Positions 8,552 to 17,131 of a DNA stretch of 64,000 bases are shown one piece after another. This stretch comes from a virus. Lineage: Duplodnaviria; Heunggongvirae; Uroviricota; Caudoviricetes. Within the stretch, counting starts at the first letter, position 1, and each line of letters opens with the position of its first letter. Both the position numbers and the translations under genes were made by a program. Location of the stretch: the IMG/VR virus record IMGVR_UViG_3300043395_001986, positions 1-64,000 of that record. One strand, 5' to 3'. The notes beneath the pieces were generated by a model. That model was not told where the DNA came from. It did not search any database and saw nothing but the letters and a program-made list of their open reading frames with translations.

Positions 8552-9112
8552 ATGGAAAGGTTACATACATTTAAAAATTTTCTTTCAAAAGAAGAATGTT
8601 ATTCTATTTTAGAAAAATATAAAGTAGAATTAAATTTAAAACCAGCCGAGATTCAATTCAATGGCCAAAAAGTTGTTAACGATAAAAGAAAATCATCCAT
8701 AGCCTTTATAGATAATATAAATGAAATAGATGAACGATTAAAAGATACTTTAAAAAATCTCATACAATTAAAAGGATATGAACTTACTGGATTAGGTCCG
8801 TATCAATTTACTGAATATAAAACTGGAGAATACTATGCTTGGCATACGGATTCTTCAAATGAGCCGGAATATAAAGATAGATTCTGTTCTATTGTCATTC
8901 AACTAAATGATGAATATAGTGGTGGATATTTACAATTAATAGATGAAAGTGAGGATAATATATATCAATGCGATCATGGAGTCGGTACAATGTATATATT
9001 TTATTCAAACATAAAACATAGAGTTATACCAGTAACAGAAGGAGTTAGATATTCCCTAGTTAATTGGGTTTCATTGAAAAAATTAAATGATTTCAAAAAA
9101 ACATTAATATAA
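8552..9112 (+). CDS. 2OG-Fe(II) oxygenase (prolyl-hydroxylase-like); KKTLI tag
   Basis: WHTD...KHRVIPVTEGVRYSLVNW. Confidence 0.9.
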   Translation: MERLHTFKNFLSKEECYSILEKYKVELNLKPAEIQFNGQKVVNDKRKSSIAFIDNINEIDERLKDTLKNLIQLKGYELTGLGPYQFTEYKTGEYYAWHTDSSNEPEYKDRFCSIVIQLNDEYSGGYLQLIDESEDNIYQCDHGVGTMYIFYSNIKHRVIPVTEGVRYSLVNWVSLKKLNDFKKTLI

Positions 9113-9879
9113 TGCTTATTGATGATAAATTTATATTTGTTTCATTGCCAAGAAGAGCATCAACTTCATTTCATTATTCGTGTTTACTAAATGGATTGAA
9201 TGTAAAAAATATAGGCCCAGTTGATTGGAGTATAGCAAATTCTAAAATTGATTTTAAAAATATAAATGAATCAAATATAATGGATTATATAGCTCATGGA
9301 CATGAGAGAATTGTTGAAGAAAAAATGATATACGGAAACATATATCCAATCATTGCAATATATAGAAATAGACATGAATCATTTTATTCTTATTTTAAAC
9401 ATTTAATTTACGATTTAAACAGAGCAGGATTCACAAAAATAGCTAAACATCTTTCAGAATTACAAACAAAAGATTTATTTTTTTTTAAAACAAATGATTT
9501 AAAATCATCAACATCACGTAGTGAAGTAATAATAAATTATTTATATGATAATAAATTAATTGAAAAAAAAAGTTATAAAAAATCAAAAAATCAAATTTTA
9601 AATACGGACGAATATGTCATAAATGTGATAGATATACTACTGGCTCCTACATCTCATTGGCATAATAACGATACTGATATAATTTGGTTTGATATAAATA
9701 ATTTATCAAAATTAGAAGAATGGGTATCAAACATTACAAATAAGCCATTTAAATTAAAAAAATTAAATTCAAATAATAAAATTAAATGTAATTTAGAATT
9801 AAACGAAGAATTTATTTATTATTATAATAATGTTTATGATTACTATGATTTACCTAAAAATAAAAAAACATTAATATAA
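9112..9879 (+). CDS. sulfotransferase-like protein; KKTLI tag
   Basis: FIFVSLPRRASTSF (PAPS loop), RNRHESFYS. Confidence 0.65.
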   Translation: MLIDDKFIFVSLPRRASTSFHYSCLLNGLNVKNIGPVDWSIANSKIDFKNINESNIMDYIAHGHERIVEEKMIYGNIYPIIAIYRNRHESFYSYFKHLIYDLNRAGFTKIAKHLSELQTKDLFFFKTNDLKSSTSRSEVIINYLYDNKLIEKKSYKKSKNQILNTDEYVINVIDILLAPTSHWHNNDTDIIWFDINNLSKLEEWVSNITNKPFKLKKLNSNNKIKCNLELNEEFIYYYNNVYDYYDLPKNKKTLI

Positions 9880-11087
9880 TGAAAAATATTGTTATAGTAG
9901 GTGGTGGAACAGCTGGTTGGCTATCTGCATTTTTTTTAAAAAAAAATTATAAAGATTGTAATATATGTTTAATAGAAAGTTCTAAAATTGGAATATTAGG
10001 AGCAGGCGAAGGTGCAACACCAAATCTCCAATCAATGCTTATTCAAGGATTTGGGTTTAATGAGGAAGATTTTTTAAAGAAAATAAATGGAACAAAAAAA
10101 TATGGAATTAATTTTACTAATTGGAGTAGGGATTTAAATAAAAATTTTGTTCATGGGTTTGAAGAAGATGGGACTGAAAACGAAATATATTCTTATCATT
10201 TTAATGCAAGATTGTTTTCAGAATATTTAAAAAATAAAAATATAGAAAAAGGTGTTCGGCACATAGATGCAGAAATTGATAAATTTGTAAAAAAAAATAA
10301 TAAAATAAAAAAAATTATTTTAAAAAATGGAGAAGAAGTAAAAACAGATTTTGTAATAGATTGTTCCGGATTTGCAAGATTAATTATAGGAAATGAATAT
10401 AATACAAAATGGAATTCATATGAAGATGAATTATTAGTTAATTCCGCTATACCATTTTTTATAAAAGAAGAAAATAATAATATAAATCAAAAAACAACAG
10501 CAGAAGCAATAGATTGGGGCTGGATGTGGAAAATCCCACTCAAAGATAGATGGGGATGTGGCTATCTGTATAATGATAACATGATAGATGATGATTTTAT
10601 TCAAAAGGAAATTTATAGATTATATGGTGATAAAAATATACAAATCAATAAAAAAATAAAATTCAAACCGGGTTCATATGAAGATGTATGGGTAGAAAAT
10701 TGTGTAGCAATTGGATTATCTAGTGGGTTTTTAGAACCATTAGAAGCAACTTCTATAATGACAATTGTATTTCAATTAAGACAATTATCTAATAATATTT
10801 TCGATGATTCAAAAAGAAATGAATACAATTATAATGTAAAGCAATTTAATTTTCAAAATATGATGTTTATACGACATCATTATAATTGTGATAGATGTGA
10901 TACTGAATTTTGGCGAACATATAAGTCCAAAAAAATACCAAATATTTTACAAGAAATTTATGATTCATTTTATACTAAAAAAACATTATCTGATATTTTT
11001 AAAACAGAGTATTTAGCTTTTACAAAAAAACAATATATACATATATATAATAATAATTTTAGTAAAAATAAAAAAACACTAATATGA
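9879..11087 (+). CDS. flavin-dependent tryptophan halogenase family protein; KKTLI tag
   Basis: GGGTAGW, GAGEGATP, K..I.F.NW, GWMWKIP (WxWxIP), FLEPLEATSI. Confidence 0.9.
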   Translation: MKNIVIVGGGTAGWLSAFFLKKNYKDCNICLIESSKIGILGAGEGATPNLQSMLIQGFGFNEEDFLKKINGTKKYGINFTNWSRDLNKNFVHGFEEDGTENEIYSYHFNARLFSEYLKNKNIEKGVRHIDAEIDKFVKKNNKIKKIILKNGEEVKTDFVIDCSGFARLIIGNEYNTKWNSYEDELLVNSAIPFFIKEENNNINQKTTAEAIDWGWMWKIPLKDRWGCGYLYNDNMIDDDFIQKEIYRLYGDKNIQINKKIKFKPGSYEDVWVENCVAIGLSSGFLEPLEATSIMTIVFQLRQLSNNIFDDSKRNEYNYNVKQFNFQNMMFIRHHYNCDRCDTEFWRTYKSKKIPNILQEIYDSFYTKKTLSDIFKTEYLAFTKKQYIHIYNNNFSKNKKTLI

Positions 11088-11725
11088 CTTTTCTAGAAGA
11101 AATAAAATTTAGTCCTACTTTATCAATATGGAAATCGAAATTTGATTTAACAAATAGAAATAAATTAATACAAGAATGCGAAGAACATATAAAAAACTTA
11201 CCGGACGTTTGGAATGATGGATATGGTTACTATATGAATGATAGTTTAAAATATAAAGGATATGTTGATATACCAATAGAAAAAGAACTAGATTCAATTA
11301 TGTTGACAGCAATTAATGAATGTATTGAGATATACTCTGAAAAATTTAATGAAATTAAAGCAGATATATGGATAAATGTTGTTAGAGCAAAAAATCCAAT
11401 ACAAAAAAACTATAAATCAAATGGAGGTTTAATTTTTCATAATCATGTTGATTTAAATATTAAAAATAAATTAACACCACCATTATATACTTTTGTTTGT
11501 TATATACAAATGCCAGATAATCTAACCAATGATGATGGTGTATTATTTATGGAAGATGTTGATAAATCAGTTTTTTCAATATTACCAAAAGATGGTGATA
11601 TATTGATTATGAAAGGTGATTTACCGCATGTTCCAAACTATGCACCAAATTCTACAAAAGATAGAATTGTATTAGCAGGTAGTGTTAGAATGGATTTTTC
11701 TAAATTAAATAAAAGTTTAATATAA
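11084..11725 (+). CDS. 2OG-Fe(II)/DSBH oxygenase-like protein; NKSLI tag
   Basis: WIN...HNH...YIQMP...LPH...RIVLAG. Confidence 0.7.
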   Translation: MTFLEEIKFSPTLSIWKSKFDLTNRNKLIQECEEHIKNLPDVWNDGYGYYMNDSLKYKGYVDIPIEKELDSIMLTAINECIEIYSEKFNEIKADIWINVVRAKNPIQKNYKSNGGLIFHNHVDLNIKNKLTPPLYTFVCYIQMPDNLTNDDGVLFMEDVDKSVFSILPKDGDILIMKGDLPHVPNYAPNSTKDRIVLAGSVRMDFSKLNKSLI

Positions 11726-12450
11726 TGTTAGTAGAAAATAAATTTATATACCTTAATTTACCAAGATGCGCATCTACATCATTTCATATAGCATGCCTTA
11801 AATACGAATTGGATATTAAATATTATGATGATATTATTCATACATTAAATCCACCAAAATTAAATAAAAATGATAACAATGAAATAATAGCTGATAATTT
11901 ATCACATACACATGAAAAGTTAATTAATTTGCAAAAAAAATTTGGTTATGATTTACCTGTTATTGCTGTAAAAAGGAATTCATATGAAAGGTATATATCA
12001 TTATGGAAACATATAATAGATGAACTTTATAGAATAGGTGAATTTGAAACTTTTAATATATTTAAGTCTTTAAATGTTGATGAATTATTATCATATACAG
12101 AAATTGATATATCATCAAATGAGAAAAAATATGAGTTTATAAAAAAATTCTTTAAAAGATACAACATTCCCAGAACCGATGCATATGTAACCGCAATGAT
12201 ATATATGATTATGAGTCCAACTTCACATTGGCATAATCATAATAAATCAATTATATGGTTTGATATACAAAATATAAAAGAATTAGAAAATTGGGTATCT
12301 GAAAAATTAAGTTTTGATTTTAAATTGGAAAAAACAAATTCAAGTCAACACTTTGAATGTAATATAATAAATGATGAATATTTTAAAAAAAAGTATGATT
12401 CTATATATAAAAATTATGATAACCCAAAAAATATTAAATCGTTAATATAA
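11725..12450 (+). CDS. sulfotransferase-like protein, paralog of 9112; IKSLI tag
   Basis: FIYLNLPRCASTSF, RNSYERYISLW, shared PTSHWHN. Confidence 0.7.
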   Translation: MLVENKFIYLNLPRCASTSFHIACLKYELDIKYYDDIIHTLNPPKLNKNDNNEIIADNLSHTHEKLINLQKKFGYDLPVIAVKRNSYERYISLWKHIIDELYRIGEFETFNIFKSLNVDELLSYTEIDISSNEKKYEFIKKFFKRYNIPRTDAYVTAMIYMIMSPTSHWHNHNKSIIWFDIQNIKELENWVSEKLSFDFKLEKTNSSQHFECNIINDEYFKKKYDSIYKNYDNPKNIKSLI

Positions 12451-12451
12451 T

Positions 12452-12739
12452 ATGATAAATTTTAAAGAAATATTTATTGCTTGGAAAACATCATTTAATC
12501 CAAGCGAATCGGAATCAAAAATTGCAAAAGATAGATTAGAAATTTGTATAAGTTGTGAATATAAAAAAGAAGTTTTTGAAAAAAAAGAATGGTCGGCAAT
12601 ATGTGGTAAATGTGGATGTCCATTAATGAAAAAAGTATTTTCAAAAGAAATTAACCCATGTCCAATGGGATATTGGATGGAATCGGATAATAAAAATGGA
12701 TTAACTATTCAAACAAAAAATAAAAAATCGTTTTTATAA
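12452..12739 (+). CDS. small Cys-rich metal-binding protein; KKSFL tag
   Basis: RLEICISC...CGKCGCP...CPMGYW. Confidence 0.65.
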   Translation: MINFKEIFIAWKTSFNPSESESKIAKDRLEICISCEYKKEVFEKKEWSAICGKCGCPLMKKVFSKEINPCPMGYWMESDNKNGLTIQTKNKKSFL

Positions 12740-12747
12740 ACTTAACA

Positions 12748-12755
12748 TATTTATA
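12748..12755 (+). promoter_or_regulatory. putative phage late promoter TATTTATA before the Hint protein
   Basis: The same motif recurs in most intergenic gaps. Confidence 0.55.
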
Positions 12756-12773
12756 AATGTAAATAAAAAAATT

Positions 12774-14267
12774 ATGAAAGGTACAATAATAGGAAGTGAT
12801 TTATTACAAAAAGAAGATTCGGTAAAAGTCATTGAAATAAATACAAATACAACCATTTACAATGATGGTGCTGAATTTTTAGACTATACGGCACTATTTT
12901 CGGTTTTGGTAGCAAATAATATAAATGAATTACATTTTATATACACAGCTGGAAATAGTTATCTACCAACCAATGCAGCATCATTTGTATTTGAAGATAA
13001 ATTAAAAGAAAAATGTTTAGAACACAATATAGAATATTATCCTTATATAGTTCCTGCTAATTCAATTACAATACCATATGTTGAAGATGCATCAAATAAA
13101 TTTATTTTAAGACAAGCATTTGATACTACCGCATTAGTTGATGAAACATATTGTGCAGATAAATTTGAATTTTTAAATTTAATGAGTGGTTCAAATTATA
13201 TACCAAATACATTTTTTAATGATTCCGATTTAGGATTTGATACAATAAATTCTATAAATTTAGAAAATCCAAATGAACCAAATTATATTATAAAATCTAA
13301 AAGTCCAAGATACGATTCAAAAAACTATCCTGCAATATACGGAATAGAAACAGAAAATGAACTAATTGATTTAAAAAATTCTCTTCCTTCTGACCATTTA
13401 ATTCAAGAATTTATTTATGATGATTTAAATATTATAGATGGTAAATGGGCTGTTATAAGAAGTATTGATATTATATATGGAAACGAATTAGATGTTATTA
13501 ATATGGGAGGATATACCCATTCTACCAGAATACCTTTAAGTTTTGCATCAAATGAATTTGTAGAAGGTACTAAAAAATATAATCAAAAGACAAGATACAA
13601 ATATATTAATAAACAATTAGGAAATTTTGCAACAATAGATTATCACGTAGATAGTGATACAATGATATTAGATTATACAGGTTCGTTAGTAGATGTTGAT
13701 ACTATTCAATTGGGAACATTTGTAAAATCAGTAGATTTCACAGATTTAAGTGGTAGTTCAATACAACATAACATATCTGATATTACAACGTTTGGCTGGG
13801 ATGGTACTTTAGAAAAAACAATTGAAACATTAACGGATATAACATCATCATTGGTTGGATTATCTTCTGCTTCTGTTGATACTATTTTTGTAAAAATAAC
13901 ATTAGAAAATGGATTAAATTGGGATGATTCACCATCTGCAACTTACTATATTGAAGAGTCTGGCTCATTATCAACAAGATGGGAAAAGATTAATAATATG
14001 TATATTGGTGATAAATTGATTGTAAAAAACAATACCACAAATCAATTAGAAACGATAGAAATAACTAATTTAGAAATGGTATATGCACAGAAAACAATAT
14101 ATGATTTAGACTTTGAAGATTCTGATTTGTTTTTAGTTGATATTGGAGATGGATTATTTGGTATAATGCACAACAGCTGTTGGTGTTGTGGTAACCCATG
14201 CGGACACTGGTGTTGTTCACAATATTGCCCAATCTGCTACCAAAACTTACCTCCCGGATGTAAATAA
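12774..14267 (+). CDS. circularly permuted ATP-grasp-like + Hint domain + C-terminal Cys-rich peptide fusion
   Basis: N-terminal GSD...VIEINTN, later DKFEF, YIIK, LIQEFI; Hint about aa 291-467 ending IYDLDF...MHN; then SCWCCGNPCGHWCCSQYCPICYQNLPPGCK. Confidence 0.7.
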   Translation: MKGTIIGSDLLQKEDSVKVIEINTNTTIYNDGAEFLDYTALFSVLVANNINELHFIYTAGNSYLPTNAASFVFEDKLKEKCLEHNIEYYPYIVPANSITIPYVEDASNKFILRQAFDTTALVDETYCADKFEFLNLMSGSNYIPNTFFNDSDLGFDTINSINLENPNEPNYIIKSKSPRYDSKNYPAIYGIETENELIDLKNSLPSDHLIQEFIYDDLNIIDGKWAVIRSIDIIYGNELDVINMGGYTHSTRIPLSFASNEFVEGTKKYNQKTRYKYINKQLGNFATIDYHVDSDTMILDYTGSLVDVDTIQLGTFVKSVDFTDLSGSSIQHNISDITTFGWDGTLEKTIETLTDITSSLVGLSSASVDTIFVKITLENGLNWDDSPSATYYIEESGSLSTRWEKINNMYIGDKLIVKNNTTNQLETIEITNLEMVYAQKTIYDLDFEDSDLFLVDIGDGLFGIMHNSCWCCGNPCGHWCCSQYCPICYQNLPPGCK

Positions 14268-14284
14268 TTAAATTAAAAAATATT

Positions 14285-14422
14285 ATGGCAAATAAAAGAA
14301 TAGAGAGACCATCTCAAATAATCAAAGTAGATATAAAACCTATATCAAACGAATTAAAGACAAAAATAGCAACGGCATTTCAAACAATTGTATCAAAAAT
14401 TAAAGAAAAACATTTATCTTAA
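14285..14422 (+). CDS. small basic 45-aa protein (absent from ORF track)
   Basis: Hand translation MANKRIERPSQIIKVDIKPISNELKTKIATAFQTIVSKIKEKHLS; fills the gap, A-rich leader. Confidence 0.65.
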   Translation: MANKRIERPSQIIKVDIKPISNELKTKIATAFQTIVSKIKEKHLS

Positions 14423-14454
14423 TTTTGATAATATTGTATTTTTGATAAATTGTT

Positions 14455-15003
14455 ATGTTAACCAACTTTTCACACACTGCTCTTTTTACTTCCGATGAAA
14501 TAAACAAAATATTAAATCATATGGGAGAAACATCGGATACACTATATCCGGTTTATATGGATGGGAATTGGAATGATATTGGTTGTAAAATGCAAAGTAG
14601 CGATTTGGAATGGAATGATGAGATTAATTGGTTTTTTATAAAATTATCAAAATGGATTGATAGTTTACAATTAGGTATAAAATTAGTAAATCCCCCACAT
14701 GCTGTATTTAGAAAGTATGTAGTTGGGGATTTTTTTATTAAACATATAGACCAACCTCCCAACCCAAAACCAATAAGATATATGTCGGTTTGTATTCAAC
14801 TTTCAAACGAATCGGAATATGAAGGTGGAAATGTATATGTTTATGCAAAAAATAATAAACAATTAATACCAAAAACAATAGGATATACTTACGCATTTGG
14901 AATAAAAGTTCCACATGAAGTAACACCGATTACAAACGGAATACGAAAATCGCTGACTATATTTGTAAGTGAAAATCATATTAAAAGAACTAATTTATTA
15001 TAG
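14455..15003 (+). CDS. 2OG-Fe(II) oxygenase; RTNLL tag
   Basis: KHID...PHEVTPITNGIRKSL. Confidence 0.9.
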   Translation: MLTNFSHTALFTSDEINKILNHMGETSDTLYPVYMDGNWNDIGCKMQSSDLEWNDEINWFFIKLSKWIDSLQLGIKLVNPPHAVFRKYVVGDFFIKHIDQPPNPKPIRYMSVCIQLSNESEYEGGNVYVYAKNNKQLIPKTIGYTYAFGIKVPHEVTPITNGIRKSLTIFVSENHIKRTNLL

Positions 15004-16077
15004 ATGTCATTTGATTTAAAAGATTATATTTGCACAATTCCTTTTAAAAGATTAGAAATACACCCAGAAGCGTATGCATTATGTTGTCCTGAATGGTTAA
15101 AAAAACGTTTACCAAAAGGAATTGATAAACTGCCGGATGTATGGAATTCCGAGGAATCTACTGAAATAAGGAAATCAATAGTAGATGGTAGTTATAAATA
15201 CTGCAGTCACATTACGTGTCCACATTTAAGCGAATTAAAAAATTTAAAAAATAAAAATGTATCACCTATAAAACATAGAAAGGAATTAGATGATGATTTT
15301 TGGGATGTATATGATGAAGTAACTGGTAGAATGAAAATAGGCCCAAGAACTATTCACATGAGTTTTGACCTAACATGTAATTATAAATGTCCATCTTGTA
15401 GGGTTGAAATGTTTGTAGAAAATTCAGAAGGTATAAAAAGAATCAATACTACAATTGAGGAAATGGAAAAATTATTTGCAAAAGATTTAGAATTAATATA
15501 CACCATAGGTAGTGGTGACCCATTTGCATCGGTTGCATTTAGAAACTATTTAAGAAATTTTGACCCTAAAAAATATCCAAAATTAAAAACTATAATGTTG
15601 CACACAAATGCTTCTCTTTGGAATAAAAAAATGTGGGATAGTATGCCAAACATACACAAATATGTAACAACTTGTGAAATATCAATTGATGCGGGTACAA
15701 AACATACATACGAAAATGTAACAAGATTAGGTGGTAATTGGGAAAATCTAATGGATAATTTAAATTTTATATCAACAATACCTAATTTAAAAGTTATTAG
15801 AACATCCTTTGTTGTACAACAGGCAAATTATACAGAAATGGAAATATTTTTACAAAAAATGAGAAATATTTTTACAAAAAATGGAAAAGTATATTTTGGT
15901 AGAGTAACAAAATGGGGACACATTTCTGAATCTACTTTTAAATTTTTAGATGTTGCGAATCCTGAGCATCCTGAACATCAGCTATTTTTAAATGAATTAA
16001 AAAAGGTCTCACACAATCCATATGTATTACATAATATGTACGAATTATCTCAATCAAAAAATTTAAATTTGATATAA
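15004..16077 (+). CDS. radical SAM protein with N-terminal SPASM/twitch-like Cys cluster; NLNLI tag
   Basis: CNYKCPSC; N-terminal C..PF...CC...W...C....CP. Confidence 0.9.
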   Translation: MSFDLKDYICTIPFKRLEIHPEAYALCCPEWLKKRLPKGIDKLPDVWNSEESTEIRKSIVDGSYKYCSHITCPHLSELKNLKNKNVSPIKHRKELDDDFWDVYDEVTGRMKIGPRTIHMSFDLTCNYKCPSCRVEMFVENSEGIKRINTTIEEMEKLFAKDLELIYTIGSGDPFASVAFRNYLRNFDPKKYPKLKTIMLHTNASLWNKKMWDSMPNIHKYVTTCEISIDAGTKHTYENVTRLGGNWENLMDNLNFISTIPNLKVIRTSFVVQQANYTEMEIFLQKMRNIFTKNGKVYFGRVTKWGHISESTFKFLDVANPEHPEHQLFLNELKKVSHNPYVLHNMYELSQSKNLNLI

Positions 16078-16078
16078 G

Positions 16079-16603
16079 ATGATATGGATAAGTGAAAATT
16101 TTAATAGACTATCGAATAGTGAATTAGAATTTCTAAAAAATAAGTGCAAGAATTTTATTTTAACAGAATCTCCAATATTATATAATAATGGTTTAACTAA
16201 AAATTATTATCATAGATATAAATTTAATGTTGATGATTTAGAATTTAAAGAAATAATTAATAAAATAACGGAACATATAAAAAAAGAAACAAATCACAAT
16301 GAGATTGAATTATGGACTATCCAAATAAATAAAATATTCGAAGGGTCTAATGAGGAAGATGAATTGCATGTAGATAGTTGTGATTTAACTTTTATATTGT
16401 ATCTAAATAATGAGTTTGAAGGTGGTGAGTTTGAATATATAAATCAAGATAAAAAAATTATAAAAATAAAACCAAAAGAAAATTTTTCTATAATATCAAA
16501 CGATAAATTAATACACAGAGTATTACCAGTAAGTAGTGGAGAAAGATTTAGTTTGGTTATGTTTTTTAATATAGGTAAAAAAAATAAATTAACTTTAATT
16601 TAG
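16079..16603 (+). CDS. 2OG-Fe(II) oxygenase; KLTLI tag
   Basis: LHVD...YLN..FEGG...HRVLPVSSGERFSLV. Confidence 0.9.
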   Translation: MIWISENFNRLSNSELEFLKNKCKNFILTESPILYNNGLTKNYYHRYKFNVDDLEFKEIINKITEHIKKETNHNEIELWTIQINKIFEGSNEEDELHVDSCDLTFILYLNNEFEGGEFEYINQDKKIIKIKPKENFSIISNDKLIHRVLPVSSGERFSLVMFFNIGKKNKLTLI

Positions 16604-16612
16604 TTGTTTATT

Positions 16613-17131
16613 ATGAAAATTTTAATAATTTCATTACCTAGAACTGGTTCAACATCGTTAATGAAACTAACAGCAAAAAAACATAATTTAAATTATATAC
16701 ACGAGCCGTTTAATAAAATATTTTACGAAAAATATAAAAATTATGATTGGATATCTAATGATAATTATGTTATAAAATCTATTATAGACCAATTACCAGA
16801 AGGTGAGACGGACATAATATCTTACTGGGAAAAGTTTCATAAAAATTTTGATAAAATCATATTACTTTCAAGAAAAGATTTGGTTGATTGTTCCAAAAGT
16901 TTAGCATATGCAGCATACCACACCGAAAAAGCATATTGGTCAAACAAATACATATGGGAATTAACACCAAATTTAGAAGAAACTTATAGATATATTATAT
17001 TTTTGAATAAATTAATGTTTGATATAAAAAATAGATTAAATTTAGATATAATATATTATGAAGATATTTTTGATATAAATTCAGATGAAAGATTAAGAAT
17101 TAATAAAAATATAAAAAAAAAGTTATTATAA
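16613..17131 (+). CDS. sulfotransferase-like (Stf0-like) protein; KKKLL tag
   Basis: ISLPRTGSTSL, HEPF, LSRKD, IYYEDI. Confidence 0.75.
   Translation: MKILIISLPRTGSTSLMKLTAKKHNLNYIHEPFNKIFYEKYKNYDWISNDNYVIKSIIDQLPEGETDIISYWEKFHKNFDKIILLSRKDLVDCSKSLAYAAYHTEKAYWSNKYIWELTPNLEETYRYIIFLNKLMFDIKNRLNLDIIYYEDIFDINSDERLRINKNIKKKLL

Follow-up and report, generated by a model that had tools for sequence, protein, structure and literature searches.

A Phage ATP-grasp-Hint Protein Predicted to Free a Cysteine-rich Peptide by Asparagine Cyclization

Introduction

Natural Hint domains splice (inteins), transfer the domain upstream of them (Hedgehog, BIL2), or free toxins (pretoxin-Hint). To our knowledge, the N-terminal nucleophile is kept in every kind named here, that is, in inteins, Hedgehog, BIL2, and pretoxin-Hint. 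The locus described in this work raises the question of what such a domain might still do once that residue is gone. By the ORF list and its translation, the gene (nt 12774–14267, plus strand) encodes a protein of 497 residues, made up of an ATP-grasp domain, a Hint domain, and a cysteine-rich tail before the stop codon. It is situated in a 64-kb stretch of DNA, which is called the window below. The window comes from a large marine phage, belongs to a complete virus record of 237 kb, has a G+C content of ∼27%, contains T4-type baseplate genes, and carries its genes all on one strand.

In the literature, we found no description of the family, of a Hint domain combined with an ATP-grasp domain, or of a Hint domain combined with a RiPP precursor, and every source name among the relatives is "hypothetical protein." The original prediction for this gene, made from the sequence alone, was that the protein does not splice and that its Hint domain cuts only behind itself, releasing a short C-terminal peptide.

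Results

Fold and Boundaries of the Hint Domain

Searches of Pfam, PHROGs, and NCBIfam with the whole protein gave no meaningful match. No Pfam Hint family, PF07591 included, matched the 497-residue protein even at E values up to 10, and a sequence profile search of the PDB returned a single weak and irrelevant match. When 1.8 billion representatives were searched with a profile, 317 relatives (representatives of clusters at 50% identity) were identified, down to ∼21% identity; full-length relatives number more than 620, each of ∼495 residues. An earlier model, built with 32 close relatives, had a pLDDT of 50 and was unusable. The AlphaFold2 model built with 107 diverse relatives, which are 21–75% identical, has a pLDDT of 90.2 and a pTM of 0.86, and disorder is confined to the tail (residues 470–497).

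The best Foldseek matches to the model are inteins and mini-inteins, Hedgehog HhC, and BIL domains, with E values of 3e-8 to 1e-5 and target TM scores of up to 0.80. Superposition on the same three groups with VIA-align gives Z scores of 15–16 and an rmsd of ∼2 Å over 135–145 residues. Residues 291–467 of the model (nt 13644–14174, plus strand) superpose on residues 1–440 of the Mtu RecA intein with a Z score of 15.5 and an rmsd of 2.0 Å, so that His291 takes the place of intein residue 1 and Asn467 that of the terminal asparagine. At the profile level, hhalign aligns the same segment with the canonical Hint domains present in longer relatives (98.9% probability, E 1.1e-17); the alignment spans 136 columns and keeps blocks A and F/G in register. 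Structure prediction, Foldseek, VIA-align, and hhalign thus agree on a Hint fold with exactly the boundaries first proposed. The resemblance is far beyond chance, and it is confirmed that residues 291–467 belong to the Hint (Hedgehog/intein) superfamily.

The ATP-grasp Domain and the Distribution of the Family

Upstream of the Hint domain, residues 1–285 (nt 12774–13628, plus strand) are modeled as a circularly permuted ATP-grasp fold of the glutathione synthetase/GspS/YgiC/YjfC type. The Foldseek matches are YgiC (Protein Data Bank code 7uk8, E 2.7e-5), YjfC (7uk6), and a glutathione synthetase-like structure (5oeu), with E values up to 6e-5. In the Atlas structure comparison, a glutathione synthetase cluster matches residues 1–270 with a TM score of 0.64, and matches to RimK and Ddl clusters are weaker. 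Together, these matches support the ATP-grasp assignment that had been made from the translation. Glu21, Asn23, Arg113, Asp123, and Arg229 are invariant among the 107 relatives, and Lys174 is nearly so. These residues are candidates for the metal-binding E-x-N motif and for the Arg, Lys, and Asp of an ATP-grasp active site.

The family was found solely on viral contigs. The IMG/VR viral contigs, some of them 288–334 kb long, contain 144 relatives. A pattern-limited scan of prokaryotes, in which each species was represented by one genome, revealed no relative, and none was found by tblastn against the deposited genomes of cultured phages. One relative (P0158, locus L093) matches its database protein only when TAG is read as Gln, which suggests that some of the phages carrying the family use a recoded stop codon.

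Catalytic Residues of the Hint Domain

Residue frequencies were counted in the 107 diverse relatives, and the tails and positions +1 and +2 were scored in 216 family members. The equivalent of block A is HVDSDTMILDYTGSLVDVDTIQLG (nt 13644–13715, plus strand), which begins with His291 (nt 13644–13646) in place of Cys1 or Ser1. In the relatives, position 291 is occupied by His (34), Lys (18), Gly (15), Ile (8), Ser (6), Thr (4), Asn (4), and Leu (4), and cysteine is absent from these eight commonest residues. The missing nucleophile that was pointed out for this copy is therefore a property of the whole family.

The TxxH motif of block B was likewise said to be lacking, and the relatives bear this out. 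When the profiles are aligned in the register of the canonical T..HP motif, its position is taken by Ser386-Pro387-Ser388-Ala389 (nt 13929–13940, plus strand). Position 389 is Ser, Thr, Ala, Cys, Asn, Glu, Gly, or Gln in 100 of the 107 relatives, with histidine not among these common residues, and the Thr position is Ser, Thr, Val, or Ala.

Blocks F and G, IYDLDFEDSDLFLVDIGDGLFGIMHN (nt 14097–14174, plus strand), are intact, as first described. The stretch IYDLDFEDSDLFLVDIGDGLFGIM leads into His466-Asn467 (nt 14169–14174; Asn467 is nt 14172–14174), and the next residue is Ser468; the putative scissile bond follows Asn467. Of the 107 relatives, 102 retain His466 and 106 retain Asn467. The few members without the penultimate histidine still have the asparagine, as is the case in true inteins, and we count this as support for C-terminal cleavage. 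Glu448 is present in 82 relatives, Phe453 is conserved, and position 451 (F:13) is Asp in 74 and His in 23; in this copy it is Asp, not His. Position 444 (F:4) is Glu, Ser, Thr, Asn, Asp, Leu, or Val, and no cysteine is listed there. An Asp at F:4 helps to coordinate catalysis in class 1 inteins; in this family it is not conserved.

Behind the His-Asn pair, the +1 residue varies (Ala in 19 of the 107 relatives, Pro in 13, Ser in 12, Tyr in 11, Val in 9, and others). Cysteine is found at +1 in 6 of the 216 scored members and at +2 in 144. In engineered inteins, cleavage at the C terminus is slow or fails when +1 is proline, a residue that ∼6% of relatives have at this position.

Splicing by class 1 inteins requires nucleophiles at residue 1 and at +1, class 2 relies on a Cys at +1, and class 3 relies on a Cys at F:4 (PMC4031507). 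The absence of a conserved nucleophile at residue 1 or +1, together with the absence of Cys at F:4, excludes all three. A class 1 intein was rejected because His291 is not Cys, Ser, or Thr, block B has no TxxH, and +1 is not a conserved nucleophile. A class 2 intein of the KlbA type was rejected on the rarity of Cys at +1, and a class 3 intein with its WCT triplet on position F:4. As far as sequence can tell, the protein would not splice, in agreement with the original prediction. With these routes excluded, asparagine cyclization, the third step of the intein reaction, remains. Inteins mutated at residue 1 still perform Asn-dependent cleavage at their C terminus, and BIL domains yield mainly cleavage products (PMC4031507). 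The Hint domain thus appears to have lost the residues for splicing and to have retained the two that are needed for cutting behind itself.

A mobile intein was also considered and rejected; there is no homing endonuclease, no empty allele among the representatives listed, and all full-length members have the domain at the same place. No fusion of ATP-grasp domain and tail that leaves out the Hint domain was seen among the representatives listed. In a single case, a stand-alone ATP-grasp protein of 291 residues is present without both the Hint domain and the tail. In some relatives (P0184 and P0196), an insert of ∼160 residues (approximately residues 335–497) separates blocks A and B of the Hint domain, and the insert of P0196 matches the carbohydrate-binding module CBM_4_9 and not a homing endonuclease.

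The Cysteine-rich Tail and Additional Self-cleaving Domains

The tail (residues 468–497; nt 14175–14264, plus strand), which is the predicted released peptide, has 30 residues, nine of them cysteines, and a mass of 3355 Da. It has pLDDT values below 50 in the model. Of the 216 scored members, 172 have a cysteine-rich tail. The tails of the family have a median length of 30 residues and a cysteine content of 22%, whereas the remainder of the protein has 0.5%. Gly, Ser, Pro, Tyr, and Trp are also abundant in the tails, most of which end with Lys or with Lys and a hydrophobic residue. They are hypervariable in length and sequence and differ wholly between distant relatives, but among close relatives the cysteine framework is invariant. 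The tail has a dN/dS ratio of 0.26, the Hint domain one of 0.19, and the ATP-grasp domain one of 0.21. The tails are thus polymorphic and yet under purifying selection. In seven relatives, only a stub of 3–7 residues follows the His-Asn pair. Peptide release cannot be the sole reason why the junction is kept, and freeing a cargo may not be the only purpose of the family.

In many longer relatives, one or two canonical Hint domains are found downstream of the family His-Asn. These have Cys1, the T..HP motif, and NHNFFANGILVHN, and they exceed the Pfam cut-offs for PT-HINT or Intein_splicing. In one subfamily, a canonical Hint domain with Cys1 comes right behind the cysteine-rich piece, and behind this domain are only 1–5 residues, such as K, KK, or KKF. 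In a second subfamily, the cysteine-rich piece, which ends with CNGSK or CNNQK, is followed by a Peptidase_S74 domain starting with SD..LK.NI, and three members score above the cut-off for this domain. Peptidase_S74 is a self-cleaving intramolecular chaperone domain. In both subfamilies, therefore, the cysteine-rich piece is bracketed by two self-cleaving junctions, an arrangement that is hard to explain unless the segment is excised.

Terminal motifs ending in a hydrophobic residue are not limited to the tails. Many unrelated cassette genes at nt 8552–17131 of the window end with K-x-L-I or a similar sequence (KKTLI, NKSLI, IKSLI, KKSFL, NLNLI, KLTLI, and KKKLL). Many of the cysteine-rich tails end with Lys followed by Leu, Ile, Val, or Phe, and the stand-alone ATP-grasp protein of a distant relative (locus L091) ends with SSKLI. 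Such endings may be a tag on the protein or a signal in the DNA that overlaps the start of the following gene.

The same phage encodes a second Hint-bearing protein of 553 residues outside the window (G000:C1:117851-119512; nt 1012–2673 of locus L008). It contains an internal canonical BIL-like Hint domain, which starts with CVSTDTQI, has TETHP, and ends with GFISHN followed by Lys. This domain is located between an N-terminal region and a C-terminal Laminin_G_3/ConA-like domain.

Partner Genes and Neighborhood

A gene for a protein of 45 residues (nt 14285–14422, plus strand), which ends with IKEKHLS in this phage, lies directly downstream of the precursor gene. It has this position in 75 of 76 IMG/VR loci and is also present in distant relatives, including one in which it follows a stand-alone ATP-grasp gene. 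Across the family, the C terminus of the small protein reads IKxKHL(S/G), and Lys40 and His43 are invariant. Complex prediction of the 45-residue protein with the precursor gives an ipSAE of 0.82, compared with 0.00 for the best control. Of 80 solved complexes, 58 reached the mark for this score, as did 2 of 110 mismatched pairs; these counts are approximate here because we supplied our own alignments. The contacts agree by at least 86% between prediction runs, and the pLDDT of the small partner is at least 80. The predicted contacts adjoin the invariant ATP-grasp residues as well as residues 371–435 of the Hint domain. In the predicted complex, the 45-residue protein binds across the active-site face of the ATP-grasp domain. 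It could be a substrate that is ligated at its C terminus, or it could be a small subunit.

Directly upstream, in 69 of 72 loci, is a gene for a cysteine-rich, zinc ribbon-like protein of 95 residues (nt 12452–12739, plus strand); a distant relative, L007, has it on the downstream side. Cys32, Cys35, Cys51, Cys54, Cys56, and Cys70 are invariant in the four sequences compared and follow the pattern CxxC...CxxCxC...C. The only match of this protein is phrog_13558 (E 8.5e-10), a group of unknown function.

The wider neighborhood contains a Trp halogenase-like gene, several 2OG-Fe(II) oxygenase genes, and a radical SAM gene, which are conserved in relatives of ∼60% identity. Enzyme arrays of this kind are a general trait of the variable regions of large marine phages (PMC2938197), and the neighborhood was therefore not counted as evidence for peptide tailoring. 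The radical SAM protein (nt 15004–16077) has the motif CNYKCPSC and an N-terminal cysteine-rich stretch, and its gene stays 2–4 genes downstream in the relatives of ∼60% identity. It resembles the twitch-domain radical SAM proteins of NF033640 (E 7e-18, below the cut-off). As a candidate maturase for cysteine-rich peptides, it gave no match to a known peptide maturase family.

Discussion

A Self-processing Precursor Is the Favored Reading

The combination found here is a permuted ATP-grasp ligase fused to a Hint domain without the residue 1 nucleophile, the block B histidine, or a conserved +1 nucleophile. The set associated with C-terminal cleavage is kept, namely His466, Asn467, and an acidic or histidine residue at F:13. 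Judged from this pattern, we consider the gene to be a self-processing precursor, in which the ATP-grasp-Hint part frees the 30-residue cysteine-rich peptide by cyclization of Asn467 and no splicing takes place; we assign this reading a probability of roughly 0.68. After folding, the side chain amide of Asn467 would attack its own peptide carbonyl. Succinimide formation would break the Asn467-Ser468 bond, with no ligation of the flanking parts. One product would be a 52.8-kDa ATP-grasp-Hint protein ending in an aminosuccinimide, which would later become Asn or isoAsn. The other would be a free peptide of 3.35 kDa with a new α-amino group. It is probable that the ATP-grasp domain and its 45-residue partner work on the tethered peptide, or together with it, either before or after its release. 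The fold, its boundaries, the residue pattern of the family, and the architectures of its members are results of this analysis; from them we infer that cleavage occurs and that the peptide is the functional product. Several observations speak against this reading: the Asp at F:4 is variable, F:13 is Asp and not His in this copy and in 74 of the 107 relatives, Pro occupies +1 in ∼6% of relatives, and seven relatives have no more than a stub behind the junction.

In a more elaborate version of the precursor reading, the enzyme would serve as the leader of a peptide factory. The ATP-grasp domain, with the 45-residue protein bound to it, would modify or ligate the cysteine-rich peptide, for instance at the conserved Lys near its end or at the carboxylate, during the time that the Hint domain tethers it in cis. 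The Hint domain would then act as a built-in, single-turnover leader protease. The peptides released at lysis might be toxins, metal binders, or signals, and variants with a second Hint domain could pass the peptide on as a thioester. We offer this version tentatively, at well below even odds.

Alternative Explanations

It is unlikely that the Hint domain serves as a scaffold without catalytic activity, with His-Asn playing a structural part and the tail staying attached as a metal-binding or redox-sensing module. In favor of such a scaffold, the catalytic apparatus lacks its N-terminal half, the Asp at F:4 is not conserved, and the composition of the tails, with much Cys, Gly, and Pro, recalls metal-binding sequences. 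The presence of Hint residues 371–435 in the predicted interface with the 45-residue protein also points to at least a structural role. However, a near-invariant terminal asparagine at 21–30% identity is hard to explain structurally, being the last residue of the fold. In two separate subfamilies, moreover, a further self-cleaving domain comes after the cysteine-rich piece, which would not be expected of an attached metal module, and neither would replacement by stubs of 3–7 residues.

These stubs are in line with a reading in which the asparagine does cyclize, but mainly for the maturation or timing of the ATP-grasp enzyme, for example through removal of a C-terminal plug or through a reactive succinimide, with the tail a secondary or disposable passenger. 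The terminal canonical Hint domains of the long relatives, which precede just 1–5 residues, are in keeping with this, as is the conservation of the ATP-grasp domain and its 45-residue partner as a core even where the Hint domain and the tail are missing. A disposable tail is difficult to reconcile with a cysteine framework conserved among close relatives at a dN/dS of 0.26, or with cysteine-rich tails in 172 of 216 members, and the bracketing by a second self-cleaving module points to the segment itself as the product. We regard this reading as quite improbable.

A non-canonical intein that joins the ATP-grasp domain to the tail, by a class 2-like attack of the +2 Cys (present in 144 of 216 relatives) or by BIL-type aminolysis, is hardly credible, since +1 is not a conserved nucleophile, F:4 has no Cys listed, no thioester for BIL-type ligation can form without Cys1, no homing endonuclease is present (the insert of one relative being CBM_4_9-like), no allele without the Hint domain was seen among the representatives listed, and the position is fixed in every full-length member, unlike that of a mobile intein.

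Significance

If the self-processing reading is true, these proteins represent a natural Hint lineage that is reduced to an asparagine lyase, or C-terminal cleavage, activity in hundreds of large environmental phages. The Hint domain would be fused to a ligase-type enzyme and would feed out hypervariable cysteine-rich peptides. If cleavage takes place, this would be an undescribed, self-contained, and protease-free route from a gene to a small peptide. It would open a large unexplored pool of phage peptides and provide a compact natural C-terminal cleavage tag.

Comparison with Known Systems

The original prediction likened the domain to pretoxin-Hint and BIL domains. The likeness is apt for the proposed mode of working but does not extend to membership, because both families keep Cys1. 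The pretoxin-HINT domain (PF07591) of bacterial polymorphic toxins is predicted to free a C-terminal cargo by autoproteolysis (Zhang et al. 2012, PMC3482391). Like the phage domain, it is situated directly before a polymorphic C-terminal module and ends with His-Asn, but it keeps Cys1 and TxxH, neither of which is present in the phage Hint. Its cargo is a toxin domain, whereas the phage cargo is a cysteine-rich peptide of 20–70 residues, and the phage carrier is an ATP-grasp enzyme without secretion or filament modules. PF07591 matches the extra Hint domains of the long relatives and not the 497-residue protein.

BIL domains of type A are among the best structural matches (Tetrahymena BIL2, 6y75, Z 15.9; 2lwy, Z 15.4). 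They share with the phage Hint the C-terminal His-Asn and the lack of a +1 nucleophile, and in BIL domains cleavage dominates over splicing (PMC4031507). BIL-A domains start with Cys and form an N-terminal thioester, which the phage Hint cannot do; by way of this thioester, BIL-A domains can perform ligation or, in the case of BIL2, isopeptide conjugation (PMC8616854).

The chemistry expected of the phage domain, asparagine cyclization without steps 1 and 2, is the same as that of engineered mini-inteins mutated at residue 1 (such as Ssp DnaB and Mtu RecA), and the superposition on mini-inteins is very close (2in0, Z 15.5; 1mi8, Z 15.2). Those proteins are splicing inteins mutated in the laboratory, whereas in the phages this state occurs in nature, is ancient, and has been maintained by selection in hundreds of lineages.

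A large folded N-terminal part with a short, variable, cysteine-rich C-terminal core is likewise a feature of RiPP precursors whose leaders are large and protein-like, such as the nitrile hydratase-like ones (PMC12537861), and candidate tailoring enzymes (the halogenase, the 2OG oxygenases, and the radical SAM protein) are encoded nearby here. Unlike the leaders of those precursors, the phage leader would itself be an enzyme joined to a self-cleaving domain, so that no leader protease would be needed.
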